Source of the DNA: a virus
Lineage: Duplodnaviria; Heunggongvirae; Uroviricota; Caudoviricetes
Reading direction: 5' to 3' (one strand)
Virus record (IMG/VR): IMGVR_UViG_2574180019_000005
DNA: 8,042 bases
Every line of letters starts with the position of its first letter. Within the stretch, counting starts at the first letter, position 1. The notes beneath the pieces are model-generated. The model saw nothing but the letters and a program-made list of their open reading frames with translations. It ran no database searches and was not told the origin of the DNA. The position numbers were made by a program, and so were the translations under genes. Shown here piece by piece: positions 1 through 8,042 of this stretch.

Positions 1-177
1 AGGGGAGGCTTTTGGTGTTTTTCCCTGCCGCTCATCACGTAATTGTTTCACCCATCGCGTCATTGTGGAAAGGCCGACATCCATAGCGCTGGCTGCATCT
101 GCCACGGTGTAATTCTGGTCAACGACCAGTTGAGCGGATTCGCGTTTAAACTCTGCGCTGAAATTTCTTTTTTTCAT
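1..177 (-). CDS. IS911-like OrfA (transposase N-terminal HTH protein), partial; runs off window
   Basis: Mirror copy of the right-end orfA; reverse-strand ATG at 175..177. Translation [59 protein letters not shown] matches IS911 OrfA as I recall it. Confidence 0.8.
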
Positions 178-249
178 TATGGCACCTGTGTTGTTCTGAG
201 GTGAGCATATCACCTCTGTTCAGGTGGCCAAATTCAGTAAACCACTTCA
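1..249 (-). mobile_element. IS3-family (IS911-like) insertion sequence, left-end fragment; IS body continues off the window to the left
   Basis: Bases 1..249 are the exact reverse complement of 7793..8041. The element end is TGAAGTGG (reverse strand, terminal base at 249), a TG-initiated IS3-family terminus, and it carries the start of an orfA reading frame. Confidence 0.8.
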
Positions 250-283
250 ATTCACCCCTACAGAGAGCAAAAGAGAAACGCCG

Positions 284-865
284 ATGAACAACTCATGGTG
301 GCAGGAACTAATGCATTTTTTCCTGCAAGGAATGACACTTAAACAGTTGATTCATATGCTAATCATCCTGATCATATTGATTATTGTTATGCCGGTAAGC
401 GTAAAAGAATGGATAAACCTGCATAGTCCAGAAATCCTTCCTCATTACTGGATGTATTACATCCTGTTGTTTTGCGTTAGCTATGTGCTTAACGGCGTTG
501 TTAATTCCGCTTATCACGCTGTGACTGAAAGAATTGAGGTATTCGCTGCTCAGAAGCGCAAATCTAAAGAAGAAAAATATGTGCAAGATTTGTTTGATTC
601 GTTAACTCTTGGAGAAAGAGCGTATTTGGCATTCGCTGTAGCCGCTAATAACCAGCTACAAACGGAAAAGGGCGCTCATGAATCAATTTCATTGCTCAAA
701 AAAGGACTCCTCGTTCGAAGGCCTCCTGCTGTTGGATATCCTGATACCGACCGTTTCGTTATCCCTGAAAGCTATAGACATGAGTGCTACATTAGGTTTG
801 CCGGGAAGGCAGACAGCCTTATGGATGAACTTATCGCTCAGGATAAGCATGGCAAAAACAAGTAA
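284..865 (+). CDS. sieB: Superinfection exclusion protein B-like membrane protein
   Basis: The ORF-track start at 224 lies inside the IS end; the first ATG in phage DNA is 284, giving 193 aa. Two strongly hydrophobic segments (LIHMLIILIILIIVMPV; YWMYYILLFCVSYVLNGVV). It is convergent with N, the position and size of sieB in lambda and P22. Confidence 0.6.
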   Translation: MNNSWWQELMHFFLQGMTLKQLIHMLIILIILIIVMPVSVKEWINLHSPEILPHYWMYYILLFCVSYVLNGVVNSAYHAVTERIEVFAAQKRKSKEEKYVQDLFDSLTLGERAYLAFAVAANNQLQTEKGAHESISLLKKGLLVRRPPAVGYPDTDRFVIPESYRHECYIRFAGKADSLMDELIAQDKHGKNK

Positions 866-881
866 TTAGCAAATGAATTTA

Positions 882-1154
882 TCATCTCGCCGTCAGTTGT
901 TTTGATTTCCGGTAGCCTGCCGCGTAAAGAGCTACGTTCGGAAGACAAGTTGAACCTTCATATTTTCTGGTCAACGTTGTCAGAGTTATCACTTCTGCTC
1001 TCATTGCTGGTTTGAGCTTGCATTGCAAGACCACTCGTGAAGGGGTTGGCCTGTGTAGCTTGTCGGAGCTGATCGCCTCCTGACTTTGCAGATTTGCGCG
1101 ACGAGCTCTACGGCGAGAAGCTGCGGTGCCTTTAAATTCTGTTTTTCTGGACAT
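882..1154 (-). CDS. N: N-family transcription antitermination protein (P22 gene 24-like)
   Basis: Internal ATG at 1154 with GGAGG 5 nt upstream on the reverse strand. N-terminal arginine-rich motif GTAASRRRARRA; C-terminus LPNVALYAAGYRKSKQLTAR resembles the P22 gp24 C-terminus as recalled. Lies between sieB and nutL/pL as in lambdoid phages. Confidence 0.75.
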   Translation of the reverse strand: MSRKTEFKGTAASRRRARRANLQSQEAISSDKLHRPTPSRVVLQCKLKPAMRAEVITLTTLTRKYEGSTCLPNVALYAAGYRKSKQLTAR

Positions 1155-1265
1155 GGATTCCTCCCGAATAAACTTTGGCGATGCAATCTCGAAGCTCCTC
1201 CTGAGACGGTTGCTTCGGCATTGCATCCCACAGCTTATGTGGTTGGGTGATCTGGCTTTTCAGCC

Positions 1266-1297
1266 ACGTAGTCGAGAGTCGACGTTGTTTAAAGAGC
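1266..1297 (-). promoter_or_regulatory. Candidate nutL (boxA GCTCTTTAAACAA plus boxB-like hairpin GTCGA-CTC-TCGAC)
   Basis: Reverse strand reads GCTCTTTAAACAACGTCGACTCTCGACTACGT. BoxA matches the lambdoid consensus (CGCTCTTA-like). A perfect 5-bp-stem hairpin follows. It sits about 110 nt upstream of N, downstream of the putative pL. Confidence 0.45.
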
Positions 1298-1343
1298 CTG
1301 CCAGTCTGTTCCATTTGGCTTCCAGCGTCCTGCTGACGGTTAA

Positions 1344-1386
1344 ATAGTACGATATGTACTTTACAAGATCAATACAATTTGTTGTA
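1344..1386 (-). promoter_or_regulatory. Candidate pL promoter with overlapping OL operators
   Basis: On the reverse strand: -35 TTGATC (1367..1372), 17-bp spacer, -10 TACTAT (1344..1349). Perfect palindrome AGTACGATATGTACT (1346..1360) overlaps the spacer and -10. A second palindrome TACAA-TTTG-TTGTA lies at 1373..1386. The 11-mer AAAGTACATAT (promoter-relative) is shared with the pR region. Confidence 0.4.
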
Positions 1387-1558
1387 AGTTGGCGTGGTTT
1401 TTTATAACGCTTTGTATTTAATAGTGTTGTTTTTTAGCGTGGATGTATTGCCTCGGCGATGTAAGGAGAGATCAGAATTGCGTGGTTTAGTGGGTTGCAT
1501 CTATTTATTTTTCAATAAATATAATTGGTTATGTGTTTTTAGGTGGGCGAACGTGAGG

Positions 1559-1587
1559 CAAAGAAAACCCGGCGCTGAGGCCGGGTT
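1559..1587 (-). terminator. Intrinsic terminator ending the leftward cI operon
   Basis: Directly after the stop of the 250-aa gene: 6-bp GC stem CCCGGC/GCCGGG (1568..1573 / 1580..1585) with a 6-nt loop, followed on the reverse strand by UUUUCUU (1561..1567). Confidence 0.6.
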
Positions 1588-1590
1588 GTA

Positions 1591-2343
1591 TTATGCTGCA
1601 AGTCTCTTAACCCAAGTCTCTCTTTTGGAGAATGGTAGAACTTGGCTTGATTCATGGAAGAGTAAGGAGAGTTGTTGCATTTGATCACCAATTGCTTCGC
1701 TGTCTATAACAACAAATCTGTTGTTATACTCCTCACTTGAAGCTTTAAGATCAATTAGTTTCCCAAGCAATGAGTAAGCACTATTCCAGCTTCCTCCGTG
1801 TTTCACGCTTGATGTAAAAACGTATTTAGGTATGTCGGTTTTTATTGTTACAGGGACGGTAATTTGATGTCCACTCAAGCCATATACGTTTTCACGAAGA
1901 GAAAGTGCGTCTCTAAGCTCTGTGTGATATAGATAATCAATAACCATACTTTCAAACTTTTCAGCTTGAACTGGCTGATACCAGTCTAACGACAAAGTTG
2001 ATGCGAGTATACCAGCTCTAATTATGTTCGATGTAATCGCACCGACATCCTTTTCTGTTGCCCAAGCAATGATTTCTCCTCGAGCATTGAGTTCTGCGCC
2101 TTCTTTAAGCAGTAATTGTCGTATCTCATCAAGTCGTTTTTTGGTAAGCGAGATCCCTCTTGCCTCCATATTCATTAAGGCATCGCATCTGTCACTAACT
2201 AAATACCTACCATTGACTTCACGGATAAAGGCACCGACATGCTCTCCATCATCACAGTAAGTGAATGGACTGATAATTCTCAAGGTCTTGCCTATTGGAT
2301 GGCATTCGAAACCTAGTTGTGAGATCACTGTTGAGCACATCAT
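1591..2343 (-). CDS. Hypothetical protein (250 aa), distal gene of the cassette at the rex position; candidate defence or exclusion component
   Basis: Long ORF on the same strand as cI. Its ATG (2341..2343) overlaps the stop of the upstream gene in an ATGA arrangement. Followed by a terminator. I recognise no motifs. Confidence 0.75.
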   Translation of the reverse strand: MMCSTVISQLGFECHPIGKTLRIISPFTYCDDGEHVGAFIREVNGRYLVSDRCDALMNMEARGISLTKKRLDEIRQLLLKEGAELNARGEIIAWATEKDVGAITSNIIRAGILASTLSLDWYQPVQAEKFESMVIDYLYHTELRDALSLRENVYGLSGHQITVPVTIKTDIPKYVFTSSVKHGGSWNSAYSLLGKLIDLKASSEEYNNRFVVIDSEAIGDQMQQLSLLFHESSQVLPFSKRETWVKRLAA

Positions 2344-2897
2344 ATTCCAAACCCCATTTGCCCCGACTCATCTTCAAGCGGTAAAGGTATTCTCCCAGAG
2401 TAAGTTATGTTCAGATGTTTACAGAAGTAATTCCAATACCCTACCAGGTCATCTGGGTTTATGTCATCTTCGATTGGAAACGCTATTCTATCACTATAGT
2501 ATCCAGCTTCTTCATAGTATACATGGTAGTGAGCACCGTAAATGATATCTTGGTACTTCGGATGATCGACCTTGTAACTATTCGTGTGTTTGTCAAAGTG
2601 ATAGGTATCTACCGCGAAAACCCTCTTGTTATGATAGAAAGCAATAATATTTATTTTAGGGTAAGAAATCGGGTCATCAGGTTCTGAATCCTGATCTGGT
2701 TTCCATTTCAGTTCAAACTTTAGCCCTTGTATAGGTATACAATCCTCATCCAAGGGGATGATATGGGCTTGTAGCCACATATCAGAGCGACTTGGTTTCT
2801 GTTTCCATTTAACGCCAGAAAAGTTAACTATTTTTTTACAATAAAGTACTTTATCAACTTCTACTTGGCTTGGCTGATAATCATCTATTTTTGCCAA
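2340..2897 (-). CDS. Hypothetical protein (185 aa), proximal gene of the cassette at the rex position; candidate defence or exclusion component
   Basis: ORF begins 40 bp downstream of the cI stop. The first in-frame start is TTG (2895..2897), just after an in-frame TAA; the next ATG is at codon 40. Protein is rich in Asp/Glu/Tyr/His (for example HFDKHTNSYKVDHPKYQDIIYGAHYHVYYEE). Very AT-rich DNA. Confidence 0.7.
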   Translation of the reverse strand: MAKIDDYQPSQVEVDKVLYCKKIVNFSGVKWKQKPSRSDMWLQAHIIPLDEDCIPIQGLKFELKWKPDQDSEPDDPISYPKINIIAFYHNKRVFAVDTYHFDKHTNSYKVDHPKYQDIIYGAHYHVYYEEAGYYSDRIAFPIEDDINPDDLVGYWNYFCKHLNITYSGRIPLPLEDESGQMGFGI

Positions 2898-2936
2898 TGT
2901 TTACCGCCCTGTAAATTGTAGATAAAAGTGGTTTCA

Positions 2937-3596
2937 TCACCCAAACGTCTCTTCAGGCCATTGGCTGGCGATAACTTTCCCCACAACGGAACAACTCTCA
3001 TTGCATGGGATCATTGGGTATTGTGGGTTTAGTGGCTGTAGAAACACCTGACCGCTATCCCTGATCAGTTTCTTGAAGGTAAATTCATCACCACCAAGTC
3101 TGGCTATGCAGAAATCGCCGGGCTCAACAGCTTGCTCAGGGTCAACCAGAATTAACATCCCGTCAGGAAAGCTGGGTTTGGAACCTGTTGGTGCGGTCAT
3201 TGAGTTACCTTCAACCTCAAGCCAGAATGCAGAGTCACTGGCTTTTTTGGTTGTGCTTACCAATCTCTCCGCATCGCCTTTGGTAAAGGTTCTGAGTTCT
3301 GGAGAGAACATCCCAGCCTGAACATGAGAAAAAACAGGGTACTCATATTGTTTTTTAACTGGGGCCGATGAGTATTCGCCAACAGGTGAAAATGTCCCGT
3401 CGTGGTTGAATGATATGTTATCAATACCAAGGTATTTAAACACCACACCAATATCACTAAGAGATGGATGACGAGATCCGCGCAACCAGTGTCCAATCCC
3501 ACCCTGCGTCATACCTAGCTCTTCGGCTAACTTCTCTTGAGTTATGCCGAGCTCTTTCATTCTGGATCTAGCCAGTTCATACCATTTCATTTTCAT
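2937..3596 (-). CDS. cI: Phage repressor cI (LexA/S24 family) with a lambda-type C-terminal domain and a non-lambda N-terminal HTH domain
   Basis: From [20 protein letters not shown] to the C-terminus QWPEETFG the protein matches lambda cI as recalled, including the Ala-Gly autocleavage site (VQAGMF) and the S24 domain. The N-terminal HTH ([23 protein letters not shown]) is different. Start is ambiguous (ATG at 3596 or 3590; the ORF track uses TTG at 3638). Confidence 0.9.
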
Positions 3597-3707
3597 GTCC
3601 TTATTATTACGCTCTGTACTGGAACCATCCATGCACAATGTGTATTTTTACTTGTATTCGCAAAGTACATATTGTATTTTTTTATTCGTGTTTACTATGG
3701 AGGGCAT
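3597..3707. promoter_or_regulatory. OR operator region with candidate pR (and divergent pRM)
   Basis: Candidate pR: -35 TTGTAT (3652..3657), 17-bp spacer, -10 TATTTT (3675..3680), GGAGG 4 nt before the cro ATG. AAAGTACATAT (3662..3672) ends 2 bp before the -10, the same spacing as in the pL candidate. TGTATT occurs three times (3641, 3653, 3673). Confidence 0.45.
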
Positions 3708-3923
3708 ATGAGCAACCTACGAAAATATCGAGAGTCACTGAATATCTCTCAAACAACACTTGCTAAGGCAGTTGGATGCACACAGGGAGCTATCGGACAT
3801 TGGGAATCTGGTCGTCGCTTCCCAGACCTTAAAACATGCCGTGCTCTTGTTGCGTGCCTAAACAAGTTAGGCGCAAAAGTCAGTCTTGATGACGTGTTCC
3901 CGCCGGAACACAAAGCCGCTTAA
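3708..3923 (+). CDS. cro: Cro-like HTH (XRE-family) repressor
   Basis: 71 aa, HTH TQTTLAKAVGCTQGAIGHWESG. Divergent from cI across the operator region with a GGAGG ribosome-binding site. The ORF-track start at 3537 would overlap cI and OR, so I take ATG 3708. Confidence 0.8.
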   Translation: MSNLRKYRESLNISQTTLAKAVGCTQGAIGHWESGRRFPDLKTCRALVACLNKLGAKVSLDDVFPPEHKAA

Positions 3924-3933
3924 TAAGCGGATC

Positions 3934-3966
3934 CGCTCTTTGTAACAACGGACATTCGTCCTACGT
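3934..3966 (+). promoter_or_regulatory. Candidate nutR (boxA CGCTCTTTGTAACAA plus boxB-like hairpin GGAC-ATTC-GTCC)
   Basis: Located just after the cro stop. BoxA and the flanks ACAACG ... CTACGT match the nutL candidate, while the hairpin stem sequence differs. Confidence 0.5.
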
Positions 3967-4064
3967 CGCTGAAAAGCGAGTTCCAAGATATCTGACCAAC
4001 TAAGGCCATATGCGTTTCCACGCATACCTTTCAACTAACTATTCACTATTGGAAATCTTAAGAA

Positions 4065-4361
4065 ATGGAAAGAACAAGTTACAGCAAACTATCACAGCGT
4101 GACGTTGATCGCGCAGAAACAGATTTACTTATCAATCTGTCAGCTATTACCCAGCGCGGTCTGGCAAAGATGATTGGCTGTCATGAATCGAAGATAAGCA
4201 GAACGGACTGGAGATTTATTGCTTCGGTCTTGTGTGCTTTCGGAATGGCATCAGACATCAGTCCGATTAGCAGGGCTTTTAAGTATGCGCTTGATGGACT
4301 CACCAATAAAAAACGCCCGGCGGCAACCGAGCGTTCTGAACAAATCCAGATGGAATTCTGA
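4065..4361 (+). CDS. cII: Transcriptional activator cII (hybrid: lambda-type C-terminus, divergent N-terminal and DNA-binding part)
   Basis: C-terminal LTNKKRPAATERSEQIQMEF matches lambda cII as recalled; the N-terminal two-thirds differ. Position between cro/nutR and O. Confidence 0.85.
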   Translation: MERTSYSKLSQRDVDRAETDLLINLSAITQRGLAKMIGCHESKISRTDWRFIASVLCAFGMASDISPISRAFKYALDGLTNKKRPAATERSEQIQMEF

Positions 4362-4382
4362 GGTCATTACTGGATCAATCCA
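4305..4382 (-). ncRNA. oop: OOP antisense RNA (with terminator to), overlapping the cII 3' end
   Basis: Plus-strand sequence AATAAAAAACGCCCGGCGGCAACCGAGCGTTCTGAACAAATCCAGATGGAATTCTGAGGTCATTACTGGATC is the reverse complement of lambda oop RNA as I recall it, with a few substitutions. The GC hairpin plus U-tract lies at the 3' end (about 4305..4330). Confidence 0.7.
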
Positions 4383-4393
4383 CAGGAGTCATT

Positions 4394-5293
4394 ATGACAA
4401 ATACAGCAAAAATACTCAACTTCTGCAGAGGTAACTTTGCCAAACAGGAGCGTAATGTGGCAGATCTCGATGATGGTTACGCCAGACTATCAAATATGCT
4501 GCTTGAGGCTTATTCAGGCGCAGATCTGACCAAGCGACAGTTTAAAGTGCTGCTTGCCATTCTGCGTAAAACCTATGGATGGAATAAACCAATGGACAGA
4601 ATCACCGATTCTCAACTTAGCGAGATTACAAAGTTACCCGTCAAACGGTGCAATGAAGCCAAGTTAGAACTCGTCAGAATGAATATTATCAAGCAGCAAG
4701 GCGGCATGTTTGGACCAAATAAAAACATCTCAGAATGGTGTATCCCTCAAAACGAGGGAAAATCCCCTAAAACGAGGGATAAAACATCCCTCAAATTGGG
4801 GGATTGCTATCCCTCAAAACAGGGGGACACAAAAGACACTATTACAAAAGAAAAAAGAAAAGATTATTCGTCAGAGAATTCTGGCGAATCCTCTGACCAG
4901 CCAGAAAACGACCTTTCTGTGGTGAAACCGGATGCTGCAATTCAGAGCGGCAGCAAGTGGGGGACAGCAGAAGACCTGACCGCCGCAGAATGGATGTTTG
5001 ACATGGTGAAGACCATCGCGCCATCAGCCAGAAAACCGAATTTTGCAGGGTGGGCTAACGATATCCGCCTGATGCGTGAACGTGACGGACGTAACCATCG
5101 CGACATGTGTGTACTGTTCCGCTGGGCATGCCAGGACAACTTCTGGTCCGGTAACGTGCTGAGCCCGGCCAAACTCCGCGACAAGTGGACCCAGCTCGAA
5201 ATCAACCGTAACAAGCAACAGGCAGGTGTGACAGCCTGCAAACCAAAACTCGACCTGACAAACACTGACTGGATTTACGGGGTGGATTTATGA
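4394..5293 (+). CDS. O: Replication initiation protein O (lambda type)
   Basis: 299 aa, MTNTAKILNF...DWIYGVDL, essentially lambda O as recalled. Contains the ori iterons. Stop overlaps the P start (ATGA). Confidence 0.95.
   Translation: MTNTAKILNFCRGNFAKQERNVADLDDGYARLSNMLLEAYSGADLTKRQFKVLLAILRKTYGWNKPMDRITDSQLSEITKLPVKRCNEAKLELVRMNIIKQQGGMFGPNKNISEWCIPQNEGKSPKTRDKTSLKLGDCYPSKQGDTKDTITKEKRKDYSSENSGESSDQPENDLSVVKPDAAIQSGSKWGTAEDLTAAEWMFDMVKTIAPSARKPNFAGWANDIRLMRERDGRNHRDMCVLFRWACQDNFWSGNVLSPAKLRDKWTQLEINRNKQQAGVTACKPKLDLTNTDWIYGVDL
4742..4870. repeat. ori-lambda: four O-binding iterons followed by an AT-rich unwinding region
   Basis: Iterons ATCCCTCAAAACGAGGGAA (4742), AATCCCCTAAAACGAGGGAT (4761), ATCCCTCAAATTGGGGGAT (4786), ATCCCTCAAAACAGGGGGA (4809), then the A-rich stretch AAAAGACACTATTACAAAAGAAAAAAGAAAAGATTATT. 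Confidence 0.9.
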
Positions 5294-5991
5294 AAAACAT
5301 CGCCGCACAGATGGTTAATTTTGACCGTGAGCAGATGCGTCGGATCGCCAACAACATGCCGGAACAGTACGACGAAAAGCCGCAGGTACAGCAGGTAGCG
5401 CAGATCATCAACGGTGTGTTCAGCCAGTTACTGGCAACTTTCCCGGCGAGTCTGGCTAACCGTGACCAGAACGAACTGAACGAAATCCGCCGCCAGTGGG
5501 TTCTGGCTTTCCGGGAAAACGGGATCACCACAATGGAACAGGTTAACGCAGGAATGCGCGTAGCCCGTCGGCAGAATCGACCATTTCTGCCATCACCCGG
5601 GCAGTTTGTTGCATGGTGCCGGGAAGAAGCATCCGTTATCGCCGGACTGCCAAACGTCAGCGAGCTGGTTGATATGGTTTACGAGTATTGCCGGAAGCGA
5701 GGCCTGTATCCGGATGCAGAGTCTTATCCGTGGAAATCGAACGCGCACTACTGGCTGGTTACCAACCTGTACCAGAACATGCGGGCCAATGCGCTGACTG
5801 ACGCGGAATTACGACGCAAGGCTGCCGATGAACTGACCTGTATGACAGCGCGAATTAACCGTGGTGAGACGATACCTGAACCAGTAAAACAACTTCCTGT
5901 CATGGGCGGCAGACCTCTAAATCGTGTTCAGGCGCTGGCGAAGATCGCAGAAATTAAAGCTAAGTTAGGACTGAAAGGAGCAAGTGTATGA
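5290..5991 (+). CDS. P: Replication protein P (DnaB helicase loader, lambda type)
   Basis: 233 aa, MKNIAAQMVNFDREQMRRIANNMPEQYDEKPQ..., matches lambda P as recalled. Translationally coupled to O and ren. Confidence 0.95.
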   Translation: MKNIAAQMVNFDREQMRRIANNMPEQYDEKPQVQQVAQIINGVFSQLLATFPASLANRDQNELNEIRRQWVLAFRENGITTMEQVNAGMRVARRQNRPFLPSPGQFVAWCREEASVIAGLPNVSELVDMVYEYCRKRGLYPDAESYPWKSNAHYWLVTNLYQNMRANALTDAELRRKAADELTCMTARINRGETIPEPVKQLPVMGGRPLNRVQALAKIAEIKAKLGLKGASV

Positions 5992-6278
5992 CGGGCAAAG
6001 AGGCAATTATTCATTACCTGGGGACGCATAATAGCTTCTGTGCGCCGGACGTTGCCGCGCTAACAGGCGCAACAGTAACCAGCATAAATCAGGCCGCGGC
6101 TAAAATGGCACGGGCAGGTCTTCTGGTTATCGAAGGTAAGGTCTGGCGAACGGTGTATTACCGGTTTGCTACCAAGGAAGAACGGGAAGGAAAGATGAGC
6201 ACGAACCTGATTTTTAAGGAGTGTCGCCAGAGTGCCACGATGAAACGGATATTGGCGGTATATGGAGTTAAAAGATGA
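5988..6278 (+). CDS. ren: Ren protein (lambda type)
   Basis: 96 aa, MTGKEAIIHYLGTHNSFCAPDVAALTGATVTSINQAAAKMARAG..., matches lambda Ren as recalled. Start overlaps the P stop. Confidence 0.85.
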   Translation: MTGKEAIIHYLGTHNSFCAPDVAALTGATVTSINQAAAKMARAGLLVIEGKVWRTVYYRFATKEEREGKMSTNLIFKECRQSATMKRILAVYGVKR

Positions 6279-6303
6279 CCATCTACATCACTGAGCTAAT
6301 AAC

Positions 6304-6335
6304 AGGCCTGCAGGTAATCGCAGGCCTTTTTATTT
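6304..6335 (+). terminator. Intrinsic terminator between ren and ninB (tR2-like)
   Basis: 8-bp stem AGGCCTGC/GCAGGCCT (6304..6311 / 6320..6327), 8-nt loop, followed by TTTTTATTT. Confidence 0.7.
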
Positions 6336-6351
6336 GGGGGAGAGGGAAGTC

Positions 6352-6792
6352 ATGAAAAAACTAACCTTTGAAATTCGATCTCCGGCACATCAGCAAAACG
6401 CTATTCACGCAGTACAGCAAATCCTTCCAGACCCAACCAAACCAATCGTAGTAACCATTCAGGAACGCAACCGCAGCTTAGACCAAAACAGGAAGCTATG
6501 GGCCTGCTTAGGTGACGTCTCTCGTCAGGTTGAATGGCATGGTCGCTGGCTGGATGCAGAAAGCTGGAAGTGTGTGTTTACCGCAGCATTAAAGCAGCAG
6601 GATGTTGTTCCTAACCTTGCCGGGAATGGCTTTGTGGTAATAGGCCAGTCAACCAGCAGGATGCGTGTAAGCGAATTTGCGGAGCTATTAGAGCTTATAC
6701 AGGCATTCGGTACAGAGCGTGGCGTTAAGTGGTCAGACGAAGCGCGACTGGCTCTCGAATGGAAAGCGCGATGGGGAGATCGGGCTGCATGA
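6352..6792 (+). CDS. ninB: NinB (Orf) recombination mediator protein
   Basis: 146 aa, MKKLTFEIRSPAHQQNAIHAVQQILPDPTKPIVVTIQERNRSLDQNRKLWACLGD..., matches lambda NinB as recalled. Ribosome-binding site GAGGGAAG upstream of ATG 6352. Confidence 0.9.
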   Translation: MKKLTFEIRSPAHQQNAIHAVQQILPDPTKPIVVTIQERNRSLDQNRKLWACLGDVSRQVEWHGRWLDAESWKCVFTAALKQQDVVPNLAGNGFVVIGQSTSRMRVSEFAELLELIQAFGTERGVKWSDEARLALEWKARWGDRAA

Positions 6793-7316
6793 CTATCAAA
6801 TCAAATACGCCAGCACACGACAAGGACTGCTGGCAAACGCCGCTTTGGCTTTTTGATGCACTGGATATTGAGTTTGGATTCTGGCTGGATTCGGCAGCGA
6901 GCGACAAAAATGCTCTGTGCGCTCACTGGCTAACTGAGGACGACGACGCGCTCAATTCTGAGTGGGTAAGCCACGGTGCAATCTGGAATAACCCACCGTA
7001 CAGCAATATCAGGCCGTGGGTGGAAAAAGCCGCTGAGCAGTGTATACAACAGCGACAGACGGTAGTGATGCTTGTGCCAGAGGATATGTCTGTCGGATGG
7101 TTCAGCAAGGCTCTGGAGAGTGTTGACGAAGTTCGTATTATCACTGATGGACGGATTAATTTTATCGAACCATCGACAGGGCTGGAGAAGAAGGGAAACA
7201 GCAAAGGCTCCATGCTGCTGATTTGGCGACCGTTCATCAGTCCTCGACGGATGTTTACTACCGTATCCAAAGCGGCATTGATGGCGATCGGGCAGGGCGT
7301 CAGGAGGGCTGCATGA
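6789..7316 (+). CDS. Phage-type DNA N6-adenine methyltransferase
   Basis: 175 aa. Catalytic motif IV NPPY (WNNPPYSN), typical of amino-methyltransferases. ATG overlaps the ninB stop and the stop overlaps the ninE start. Sits where lambdoid prophages carry the small phage Dam-type methylase. Confidence 0.8.
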
Positions 7317-7489
7317 GACGACAGCGACGAAGCATCACCGACATAATCTGCGAAAACTGCAAATACCTTCCAACGAAACGCTCCAGAAATAAACGCAAGC
7401 TAATCCCAAAAGAATCTGACGTAAAAACCTTCAATTACACAGCCCACCTGTGGGATATCCGGTGGCTAAGATATCGTGCGAGGAAATGA
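7313..7489 (+). CDS. ninE: NinE protein
   Basis: 58 aa, [58 protein letters not shown], near-identical to lambda NinE as recalled. Confidence 0.85.
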
Positions 7490-7491
7490 CA

Positions 7492-7896
7492 ATGGATTAT
7501 TCACAGTTAAGTGATTTTGAAATTAACAGAATGGTAGGAGACATAATTTTTAAAGGCCTTTGGGCAAGTAAACCGGAAACATCAGGGAATAACACCAACA
7601 AATGGTATTACGGAAATGCTGATACAACTTTTGAGCCATTAAATCATTTGCCTGACTACTGCAATGATCCGAGCGCTTCATGGCCGATTATTGAGAAATA
7701 CAGGATTTCTATCTTAGACCAGTTAACTGAATGGTGTGTGGATGCAAAAGGCGTAAGCCCAATATTTGATACCAGACCTCTCCGCGCCGCCATGAAGTGG
7801 TTTACTGAATTTGGCCACCTGAACAGAGGTGATATGCTCACCTCAGAACAACACAGGTGCCATAATGAAAAAAAGAAATTTCAGCGCAGAGTTTAA
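7492..7896 (+). pseudogene. nin-region ORF of unknown function, interrupted by IS insertion at 7792/7793 (native part 7492..7792, tail read from IS DNA)
   Basis: ATG 7492 with GAGGA 7 nt upstream. The reading frame continues across the IS terminus TGAAGTGG at 7793, so the last 34 codons are IS-derived. Confidence 0.5.
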
Positions 7897-8042
7897 ACGC
7901 GAATCCGCTCAACTGGTCGTTGACCAGAATTACACCGTGGCAGATGCAGCCAGCGCTATGGATGTCGGCCTTTCCACAATGACGCGATGGGTGAAACAAT
8001 TACGTGATGAGCGGCAGGGAAAAACACCAAAAGCCTCCCCTA
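7793..8042 (+). mobile_element. IS3-family (IS911-like) insertion sequence, left-end fragment; IS body continues off the window to the right
   Basis: Terminus TGAAGTGGTTTACTGAATTTGGCCACC... followed by the orfA start. 7793..8041 is the exact inverted copy of 1..249. Confidence 0.8.
7865..8042 (+). CDS. IS911-like OrfA (transposase N-terminal HTH protein), partial; runs off window
   Basis: ATG 7865. [59 protein letters not shown]. Confidence 0.8.

Follow-up and report, generated by a model that had tools for sequence, protein, structure and literature searches.

What is the function of two genes which, in a lambdoid prophage, stand directly behind the repressor gene cI, in the slot where lambda carries rexA and rexB? 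The window (the whole analysed stretch of 8,042 nucleotides) contains such a pair, here called gene A and gene B, for which the initial annotation had proposed a novel defence system made of two unrecognised proteins. We consider that A and B form a two-gene accessory ("moron") defence cassette expressed in lysogens, with a probability of about 0.6, and that its most likely role is protection of the lysogen, by exclusion or abortive infection, against other phages. The argument relies on the following features.

224-865, plus strand: sieB, in the lambdoid immunity/replication region
882-1226, minus strand: N, in the same region
1557-1587, minus strand: intrinsic terminator expected to close the cI-A-B transcript (hairpin scan, fold, identity to lambda)
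1588-2934, minus strand: exchangeable cargo unit of 1347 bp (blastn against PhiR11_1 and 2G7b)
1591-2343, minus strand: gene B, 250 aa (ORF)
2340-2897, minus strand: gene A, 185 aa, TTG start (ORF)
2898-2936, minus strand: spacer of 39 nt between cI and A, without terminator (terminator scan)
2937-3638, minus strand: cI-type prophage repressor (Pfam Peptidase_S24, E 1.3e-28; HTH_3, E 2e-10)

Beyond cI, which corresponds to the annotated cI of phage PhiR57_1, the window carries cro, cII, O, P, ren, ninB and a gene for a Dam-type methylase. Both same-strand reading frames proposed initially, of 185 and 250 aa, are present as described. The cI stop codon occupies positions 2937-2939 and gene A starts at 2897, so that the close spacing noticed earlier holds, while its exact length is 39 nt and not 40 bp. 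At the A/B junction, GGAATATGATGTGC, the TGA stop of A overlaps the ATG of B within the ATGA at 2340-2343, the overlap that had been taken for a sign of translational coupling; a further in-frame ATG of B lies just after. The TTG start of gene A is supported by the M-A-K N-terminus, conserved in all A homologues. G+C content amounts to 38.2% for A and 40.6% for B; the window as a whole has 45.9%, and the genes cI, O and P have 46-53%. The pair thus lies lower in G+C than the window, yet is just modestly "foreign". When A and B are compared across genera, pS reaches 0.68-0.89 (saturated) while pN stays at 0.13-0.44, which implies purifying selection on both genes; dN/dS does not exceed about 0.26 wherever dS is computable, and A evolves faster than B. 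Both products are acidic and soluble, without signal peptide or transmembrane segment, the latter following from maximum 19-residue Kyte-Doolittle hydropathy values of 0.45 for A and 1.19 for B. In the records of phages PhiR57_1 and PhiR63_2, they are annotated as hypothetical proteins only. These two phages probably originate from Brenes & Laub 2025.

Scanning of the minus strand between 1200 and 3800 revealed a single terminator-like site: a hairpin at 1587-1566, whose 8-bp stem has six G-C pairs, and behind it the T-rich tail TTCTTTGCCT; its fold was estimated at -17 kcal/mol with z = -2.1 (56-nt test stretch). This site, spanning 1557-1587, is the intrinsic terminator that had been placed at 1559-1587 after the pair. 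The same scan found no terminator between cI and A. Since termination is predicted after B and not between cI and A, transcripts from the repressor promoters should run through cI, A and B and stop there, which agrees with the co-transcription logic of the initial annotation. Co-transcription would accordingly involve the repressor promoters, pRM in lysogens and pRE during establishment, reading cI, then A, then B up to the terminator. Promoter-like sites in the region numbered 5 against 6.1 expected by chance, and a promoter-like pair at 2915-2887 near the start of A was dismissed, its -10 element lying inside gene A. Rfam revealed no RNA families in the window.

Comparison with related phages delimits the unit that was exchanged. 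The segment 1466-1587, terminator included, is 91% identical to lambda DNA just downstream of rexB, and on this similarity the terminator of the window is the conserved lambdoid terminator found after rexB in lambda; on the other side, the 3′ part of lambda cI (~400 nt) shares 93% identity with 2936-3347. Window segments 247-1587 and 2935-4959 are 99% identical (blastn) in PhiR11_1 and 2G7b, which hold a different gene pair between the same junctions, 1587/1588 on the left and 2934/2935 on the right; identity to these two phages (99%) and to lambda (93%) picks up again at 2935/2936. Flanks that are 99% identical around differing pairs define the cargo as 1588-2934. Judged from these alignments, the same junctions are used by at least three cargo types, and the interval between cI and N was earlier described as a mosaic hotspot holding RexAB and BstA (Owen et al., PMC8585504). 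The initial placement of the pair is therefore corroborated: from the cI stop to the conserved terminator, A and B stand where lambda has rexAB. The alternative pair of PhiR11_1 (locus L027, 3588-4968; likewise locus L028 for 2G7b) encodes a 283-aa soluble protein and a 163-aa hydrophobic one, probably a multi-pass membrane protein. Neither finds a match in Pfam or PADLOC; the pair resembles RexA/RexB in sizes and architecture and may be regarded as a second candidate exclusion cassette.

With lambda RexAB the cassette shares the position behind cI, the two-gene composition, the same conserved terminator followed by oL/pL and, as far as expression of A and B may be deduced, production in lysogens. 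The likeness does not extend to the proteins, which have neither sequence nor fold relationship to RexA and RexB: RexB is a multi-pass membrane protein and RexA an RdgC-like DNA binder, whereas A and B are both soluble and possess other folds. The earlier statement that the proteins are not Rex is borne out by Pfam and PADLOC, where neither shows homology to RexA, RexB or BstA. The last of these, the abortive-infection defence of Salmonella prophage BTP1 (PMC8585504), likewise lies directly downstream of the repressor in diverse Gram-negative prophages, but it consists of one protein only and has an anti-BstA DNA element of its own, and A and B have no PADLOC BstA match.

Phages ev207, ev017, PhiR57_1 and PhiR63_2 carry the cassette DNA with 100% identity, and an Stx1a phage with 99.3%. 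Of 5426 complete E. coli genomes, 239 (~4%) contain at least 80% of the cassette length, the carriers including the probiotic Nissle 1917, the reference strain ATCC 25922, NU14, UM146 and avian pathogenic strains; no plasmid copies were found. Homologues of B with at least 47% identity occur sporadically in Salmonella, Klebsiella, Yersinia, Providencia, Xenorhabdus, Photorhabdus, Pantoea, Edwardsiella, Thorsellia and Aeromonas. A search among 185,579 species-representative genomes gave 8 loci only, one of them on a 518-bp contig labelled Actinomadura and taken as contamination. Among 50,697 phage records, A and B match exactly the same 8. A pair 28-30% identical stands behind a CI-like repressor in a Pseudomonas D3-like phage, whose record leaves the A gene unannotated; the A-family gene missing from the GenBank annotation of Pseudomonas phage VB_PaD_phPA-G (L020, 4486-5004) overlaps the B homologue by 4 nt.

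Eighteen loci, representing ten Enterobacterales genera, Aeromonas and one Pseudomonas phage, were analysed in detail. Gene order is repressor-A-B in all 18, with A directly upstream of B on the same strand, the A stop overlapping the B start, and a same-strand repressor of S24 or HTH type located upstream with no more than one intervening gene. An intrinsic terminator (hairpin and U-run) follows B in 16 of the 18 loci, and the start codon of A is TTG or GTG, again in 16 of 18. One identical A protein is found behind repressors of 237, 231, 219 and 258 aa and beside several different Cro-type genes. Every A/B locus examined is a prophage immunity region and none is surrounded by a classical defence island. 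Repressor and A are separated by a 113-aa DUF3024 gene in prophages of Providencia and Izhakiella (L013, 6053-6394; similar in L011 and L014), where this gene is further cargo on the repressor transcript.

Protein A has a confidently predicted fold for which no solved structural relative was found, and no recognisable enzyme fold appeared in the predicted structure. Its family is small, with 32 clusters at 50% identity among 1.84 billion proteins. Residues W31, R92, N106, H123, H125, F158 and P173 are invariant and K22, D97, H104, G121 and Q180 nearly so, a G-x-H-x-H motif being conspicuous. The C-terminal tail (...SGQxG...) is conserved family-wide, residues 181-185 are predicted to be disordered, and the tail may represent a docking peptide, possibly for the chaperone-like domain of B. 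We regard A as a candidate effector or toxin. Sequence and profile searches found no genuine relatives of A or B among PDB chains; the sole significant match, the designed Kelch repeat protein SAKe6, arose by summing a short repeated hairpin motif and was rejected.

For B, a two-domain architecture is predicted. Residues ~10-120 belong to DUF1828, matched in Pfam above threshold, with a predicted fold resembling type III secretion chaperones, and residues ~128-250 adopt a restriction-endonuclease PD-(D/E)xK (DUF1829) fold, including the predicted alpha-beta-beta-beta-alpha-beta core. This reading agrees with published HHpred annotation of the identical protein, which places DUF1828 at 25-114 and DUF1829 (PDDEXK clan, 98.8%) at 155-241 (PMC13092281). 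The C-terminal domain alone has no Pfam match even at E = 10, DUF1829 being detected just by that HHpred result and by fold comparison. Canonical D...(D/E)xK catalytic residues are absent from it: as judged from predicted secondary structure rather than superposition, the position of the first "D" holds an invariant G-x-S-G-H159, and the third strand carries xPK173, whose lysine is lost in the Pseudomonas homologue. The invariant residues of the domain are F130, V134, L138, G155, S157, G158, H159, P164, T177, W186, G194, D198 and R209. Absence of the canonical motif suggests either a non-canonical catalyst or a binding module, and B is accordingly a candidate sensor/regulator or nucleic-acid-binding partner.

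The assertion that both proteins are unrecognised has to be amended, since B is a DUF1828 protein in Pfam and both match PADLOC PDC-M24 models, A weakly. B aligns to PDC-M24B with E 4.7e-10, its residues 2-249 covering model positions 4-254 of 256, and B proteins from Aeromonas, Klebsiella, Thorsellia and the Pseudomonas phage match the same model with E from 1.5e-9 to 3.5e-5. For A of the window the match to PDC-M24A is marginal (E 4.8e-4, residues 104-163 only), and the Aeromonas, Klebsiella, Thorsellia and Pseudomonas-phage A proteins scanned have none. Homology of A to PDC-M24A finds indirect support in the wider family: three PDC-M24A models gave 6, 3 and 2 matches (11 in total) among 23 aligned A-family proteins, DUF6978 is matched by 7 of these 23 representatives, and the close and distant A groups are related with hhalign probability of 99.7% (E 5e-27). 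PDC-M24 corresponds to cassette CAS_00098 (FAM_00129>>FAM_00065), which was drawn from genes lying inside BREX, DISARM or type I restriction-modification loci; like the other PDC systems, it is explicitly no more than a candidate in PADLOC (Payne et al. 2024, bioRxiv 10.1101/2024.01.29.577857). In both systems two same-strand genes encode a DUF6978-like first protein and a DUF1828-type second one. The A/B clade differs in standing only behind prophage repressors instead of inside such defence loci, and in that its A proteins match PDC-M24A models barely or not at all, for which reason PADLOC may well miss this cassette. Profile similarity places A/B with candidate PDC-M24, as a divergent relative.

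These very proteins have also been listed before. DefensePredictor Tables S5 and S10 (PMC13092281, Science 2026) carry A (WP_001062368.1) and B (WP_000968518.1) under the label "Predicted novel defense gene"; the window proteins are identified with these accessions through the 100% DNA match to Nissle and the Nissle annotation. Mean log-odds in the 69-strain set are 5.6 for B and 4.9 for A, and in the 3000-strain set 5.4 for A and 6.3 for the B variant WP_000968517.1, the cut-off being 4; Table S5 assigns A and B to one operon (PMC13092281). Both are absent from Table S6, which lists the units chosen for screening (PMC13092281), and so stand outside the units screened with DefensePredictor. 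Validation in that study was 45% overall and higher with higher score (PMC13092281). "Novel" is therefore too strong a word for proteins already on DefensePredictor lists and for a pair distantly related to PDC-M24. Among validated two-gene defences of the same study, DS-6/HipAD has a second protein with DUF1829, proposed to neutralise a HipA-type kinase (PMC13092281). The DUF1829 (PD-(D/E)xK clan) domain of the second protein is shared with B, whereas the first gene encodes a HipA-family kinase, which A is not, and the partner carries DUF3037 in place of the DUF1828 of B; by analogy, DS-6/HipAD is a precedent for a DUF1829 partner in toxin-antitoxin-like defence. NCBIfam gave no meaningful match for A or B, PHROGs matched them just to families of unknown function, and no toxin-antitoxin family match was obtained in Pfam, NCBIfam or PADLOC. 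No functional study of DUF1828, DUF6978, PDC-M24, the PHROG families or the A/B accessions was found in the literature covered, to which Brenes & Laub 2025 does not belong.

Position, obligatory linkage, mobility among unrelated immunity regions, purifying selection and two computational predictions taken together make defence the best explanation, with the reservation that both screens partly use genomic context, so that the predictions are not fully independent of the argument from position. Several observations speak against it: DefensePredictor scores of ~5-6 are not far over the cut-off of 4, the loci examined lie outside classical defence islands and plasmid copies are lacking, the match of A to PDC-M24A is marginal and four A proteins of the clade have none, B is devoid of catalytic D...(D/E)xK residues, and A of a recognisable enzyme fold. 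The defence proposal of the initial annotation thus stands as a candidate assignment, supported by the slot, the linkage and two independent published computational screens, while no phenotype of A or B was found in the literature covered.

As for a mechanism, our preference goes to an abortive system of toxin-antitoxin-like type, working in the cytoplasm, in which A would be the effector, present in low amounts, and B its sensor/regulator; because B has no canonical catalytic residues and A no recognisable enzyme fold, effector, trigger and A-B complex are all inferred. Gene A would be produced at low level, as suggested by the weak non-ATG start codon in most loci, and translation of B would be coupled to that of A. 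The two cytoplasmic proteins would form a complex in which the DUF1828 domain of B holds A, perhaps via the conserved disordered C-terminal tail of the latter; alternatively, this domain may sense a phage protein. Effector activity might reside in the invariant His/Asn/Arg set of A together with near-invariant Asp97 and His104, or in the endonuclease-fold domain of B, lacking the normal acidic catalytic residues. Upon superinfection the effector would attack nucleic acid or some different essential target, and the working mode would be that of a toxin-antitoxin-type abortive system, unlike the membrane channel of RexAB. A stronger proposal, that the repressor transcript carries a mechanistically new defence family in which an effector A, with a fold that has no solved relative, is checked or triggered by a chaperone-like/degenerate-nuclease B, is put forward only tentatively and appears rather doubtful at present. 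Should it be true, both the chemistry of the effector and the architecture of sensing would be new, and PADLOC PDC-M24 would be validated.

Other explanations have to be weighed against the defence reading. That the reading frames are spurious or decaying is practically refuted: the non-ATG start of A is the sole point in favour, against which stand pN well under pS between genera, confident structure models for both proteins, and conservation of synteny, of the A/B overlap and of the N-termini. It is rather unlikely that A and B constitute a toxin-antitoxin or addiction module which stabilises the prophage or is merely selfish, without a meaningful anti-phage role. Such a module would fit two small coupled genes, the weak start on the upstream gene in 16 of 18 loci, the antitoxin-like role proposed for the DUF1829 partner in DS-6/HipAD (PMC13092281) and the retention of the immunity region in degraded, IS-flanked prophages; yet Pfam, NCBIfam and PADLOC offer no toxin-antitoxin family, strict placement behind repressors, instead of at any site on mobile elements, and lack of plasmid copies are atypical for modules of this kind, and many addiction modules are themselves defences, so that the two explanations overlap.

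The same operon position as rexA raises the thought that A and B modulate the phage's own lysis-lysogeny decision or DNA transactions in a RexA-like manner; rexA is described, in work cited in passages of PMC12315714 and PMC11077077, as biasing the switch towards lytic growth. A nuclease/DNA-binding type of fold predicted for B and the presence of other DNA-interaction proteins beside cI in lambdoid phages point the same way. We nevertheless hold such a role improbable, since a factor tuned to the switch should co-evolve with its repressor, while this cassette moves among unrelated immunity types and replication modules, and defence-prediction tools are positive for both proteins. Still less credit is given to a pair contributing to host fitness or virulence and unrelated to phages. 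It would account for the frequency of the cassette in extra-intestinal pathogenic and probiotic strains (Nissle 1917, ATCC 25922, NU14, UM146, avian pathogenic isolates), and bstA too was tied to virulence before its defence role became known (PMC8585504), but its spread over these strains is accounted for by a 100% identical prophage passed on clonally, the same pair resides in prophages of insect, plant, fish and environmental bacteria, and both proteins are cytoplasmic, devoid of signal peptides and transmembrane segments.

If the preferred reading of A/B as a lysogen-expressed defence cassette is validated, it would concern a family carried by ~4% of complete E. coli genomes, provide the first function for DUF1828, DUF6978 and PDC-M24, and supply a clean natural cassette exchange at the rexAB slot, with three cargoes between identical junctions. 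The result might also matter for the host range of therapeutic phages among extra-intestinal pathogenic E. coli, and for earlier reports of phage protection by the lambdoid prophage of Nissle. The value is limited by the fact that these genes already figure on published candidate lists, among thousands of such candidates.

Several observations concern the prophage itself. Both ends of the window (1-249 and 7793-8041) are exact inverted copies of the end of an IS3-family (ISEc52-like) element and take in the beginning of its first transposase ORF. On the left, the copy stands in place of the early-left operon beside sieB, as in Nissle 1917; on the right, it interrupts ninX. Positions 1-7795 are 100% identical to ATCC 25922 and others, and a right-hand IS copy at that position was not seen in the best complete-genome matches. 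In the Nissle assembly CP007799 (L019, 10438-11139) cI is annotated in two pieces, as a partial LexA-family pseudogene and a separate HTH protein, unlike in the window, where it is intact; the split may come from a sequencing error or a real frameshift.

Two published reports touch on neighbouring parts of the region. The lambdoid prophage NC-SV, integrated at icd in E. coli NC101, is reported to encode a protective small RNA, svsR, where its cI gene ends on the 3′ side (PMC12803456, 2026). The corresponding position in the window is the cI 3′ end, about 2937-3100, and the Nissle copy of the present prophage is likewise integrated at icd. If NC-SV carries A/B, the cassette could contribute to the protection credited to svsR (PMC12803456). 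Bury et al. 2018 (PMC5987069) cloned the "phage repressor (pr)" gene of Nissle 1917 and reported that, with this clone, plating dropped more than 200-fold for lambda and stx phages. The primers used in that work match window positions 4019-4387 exactly and bracket cII (4065-4361), not cI, from which it follows that the reported protection came from a cII-type activator fragment of the same prophage.
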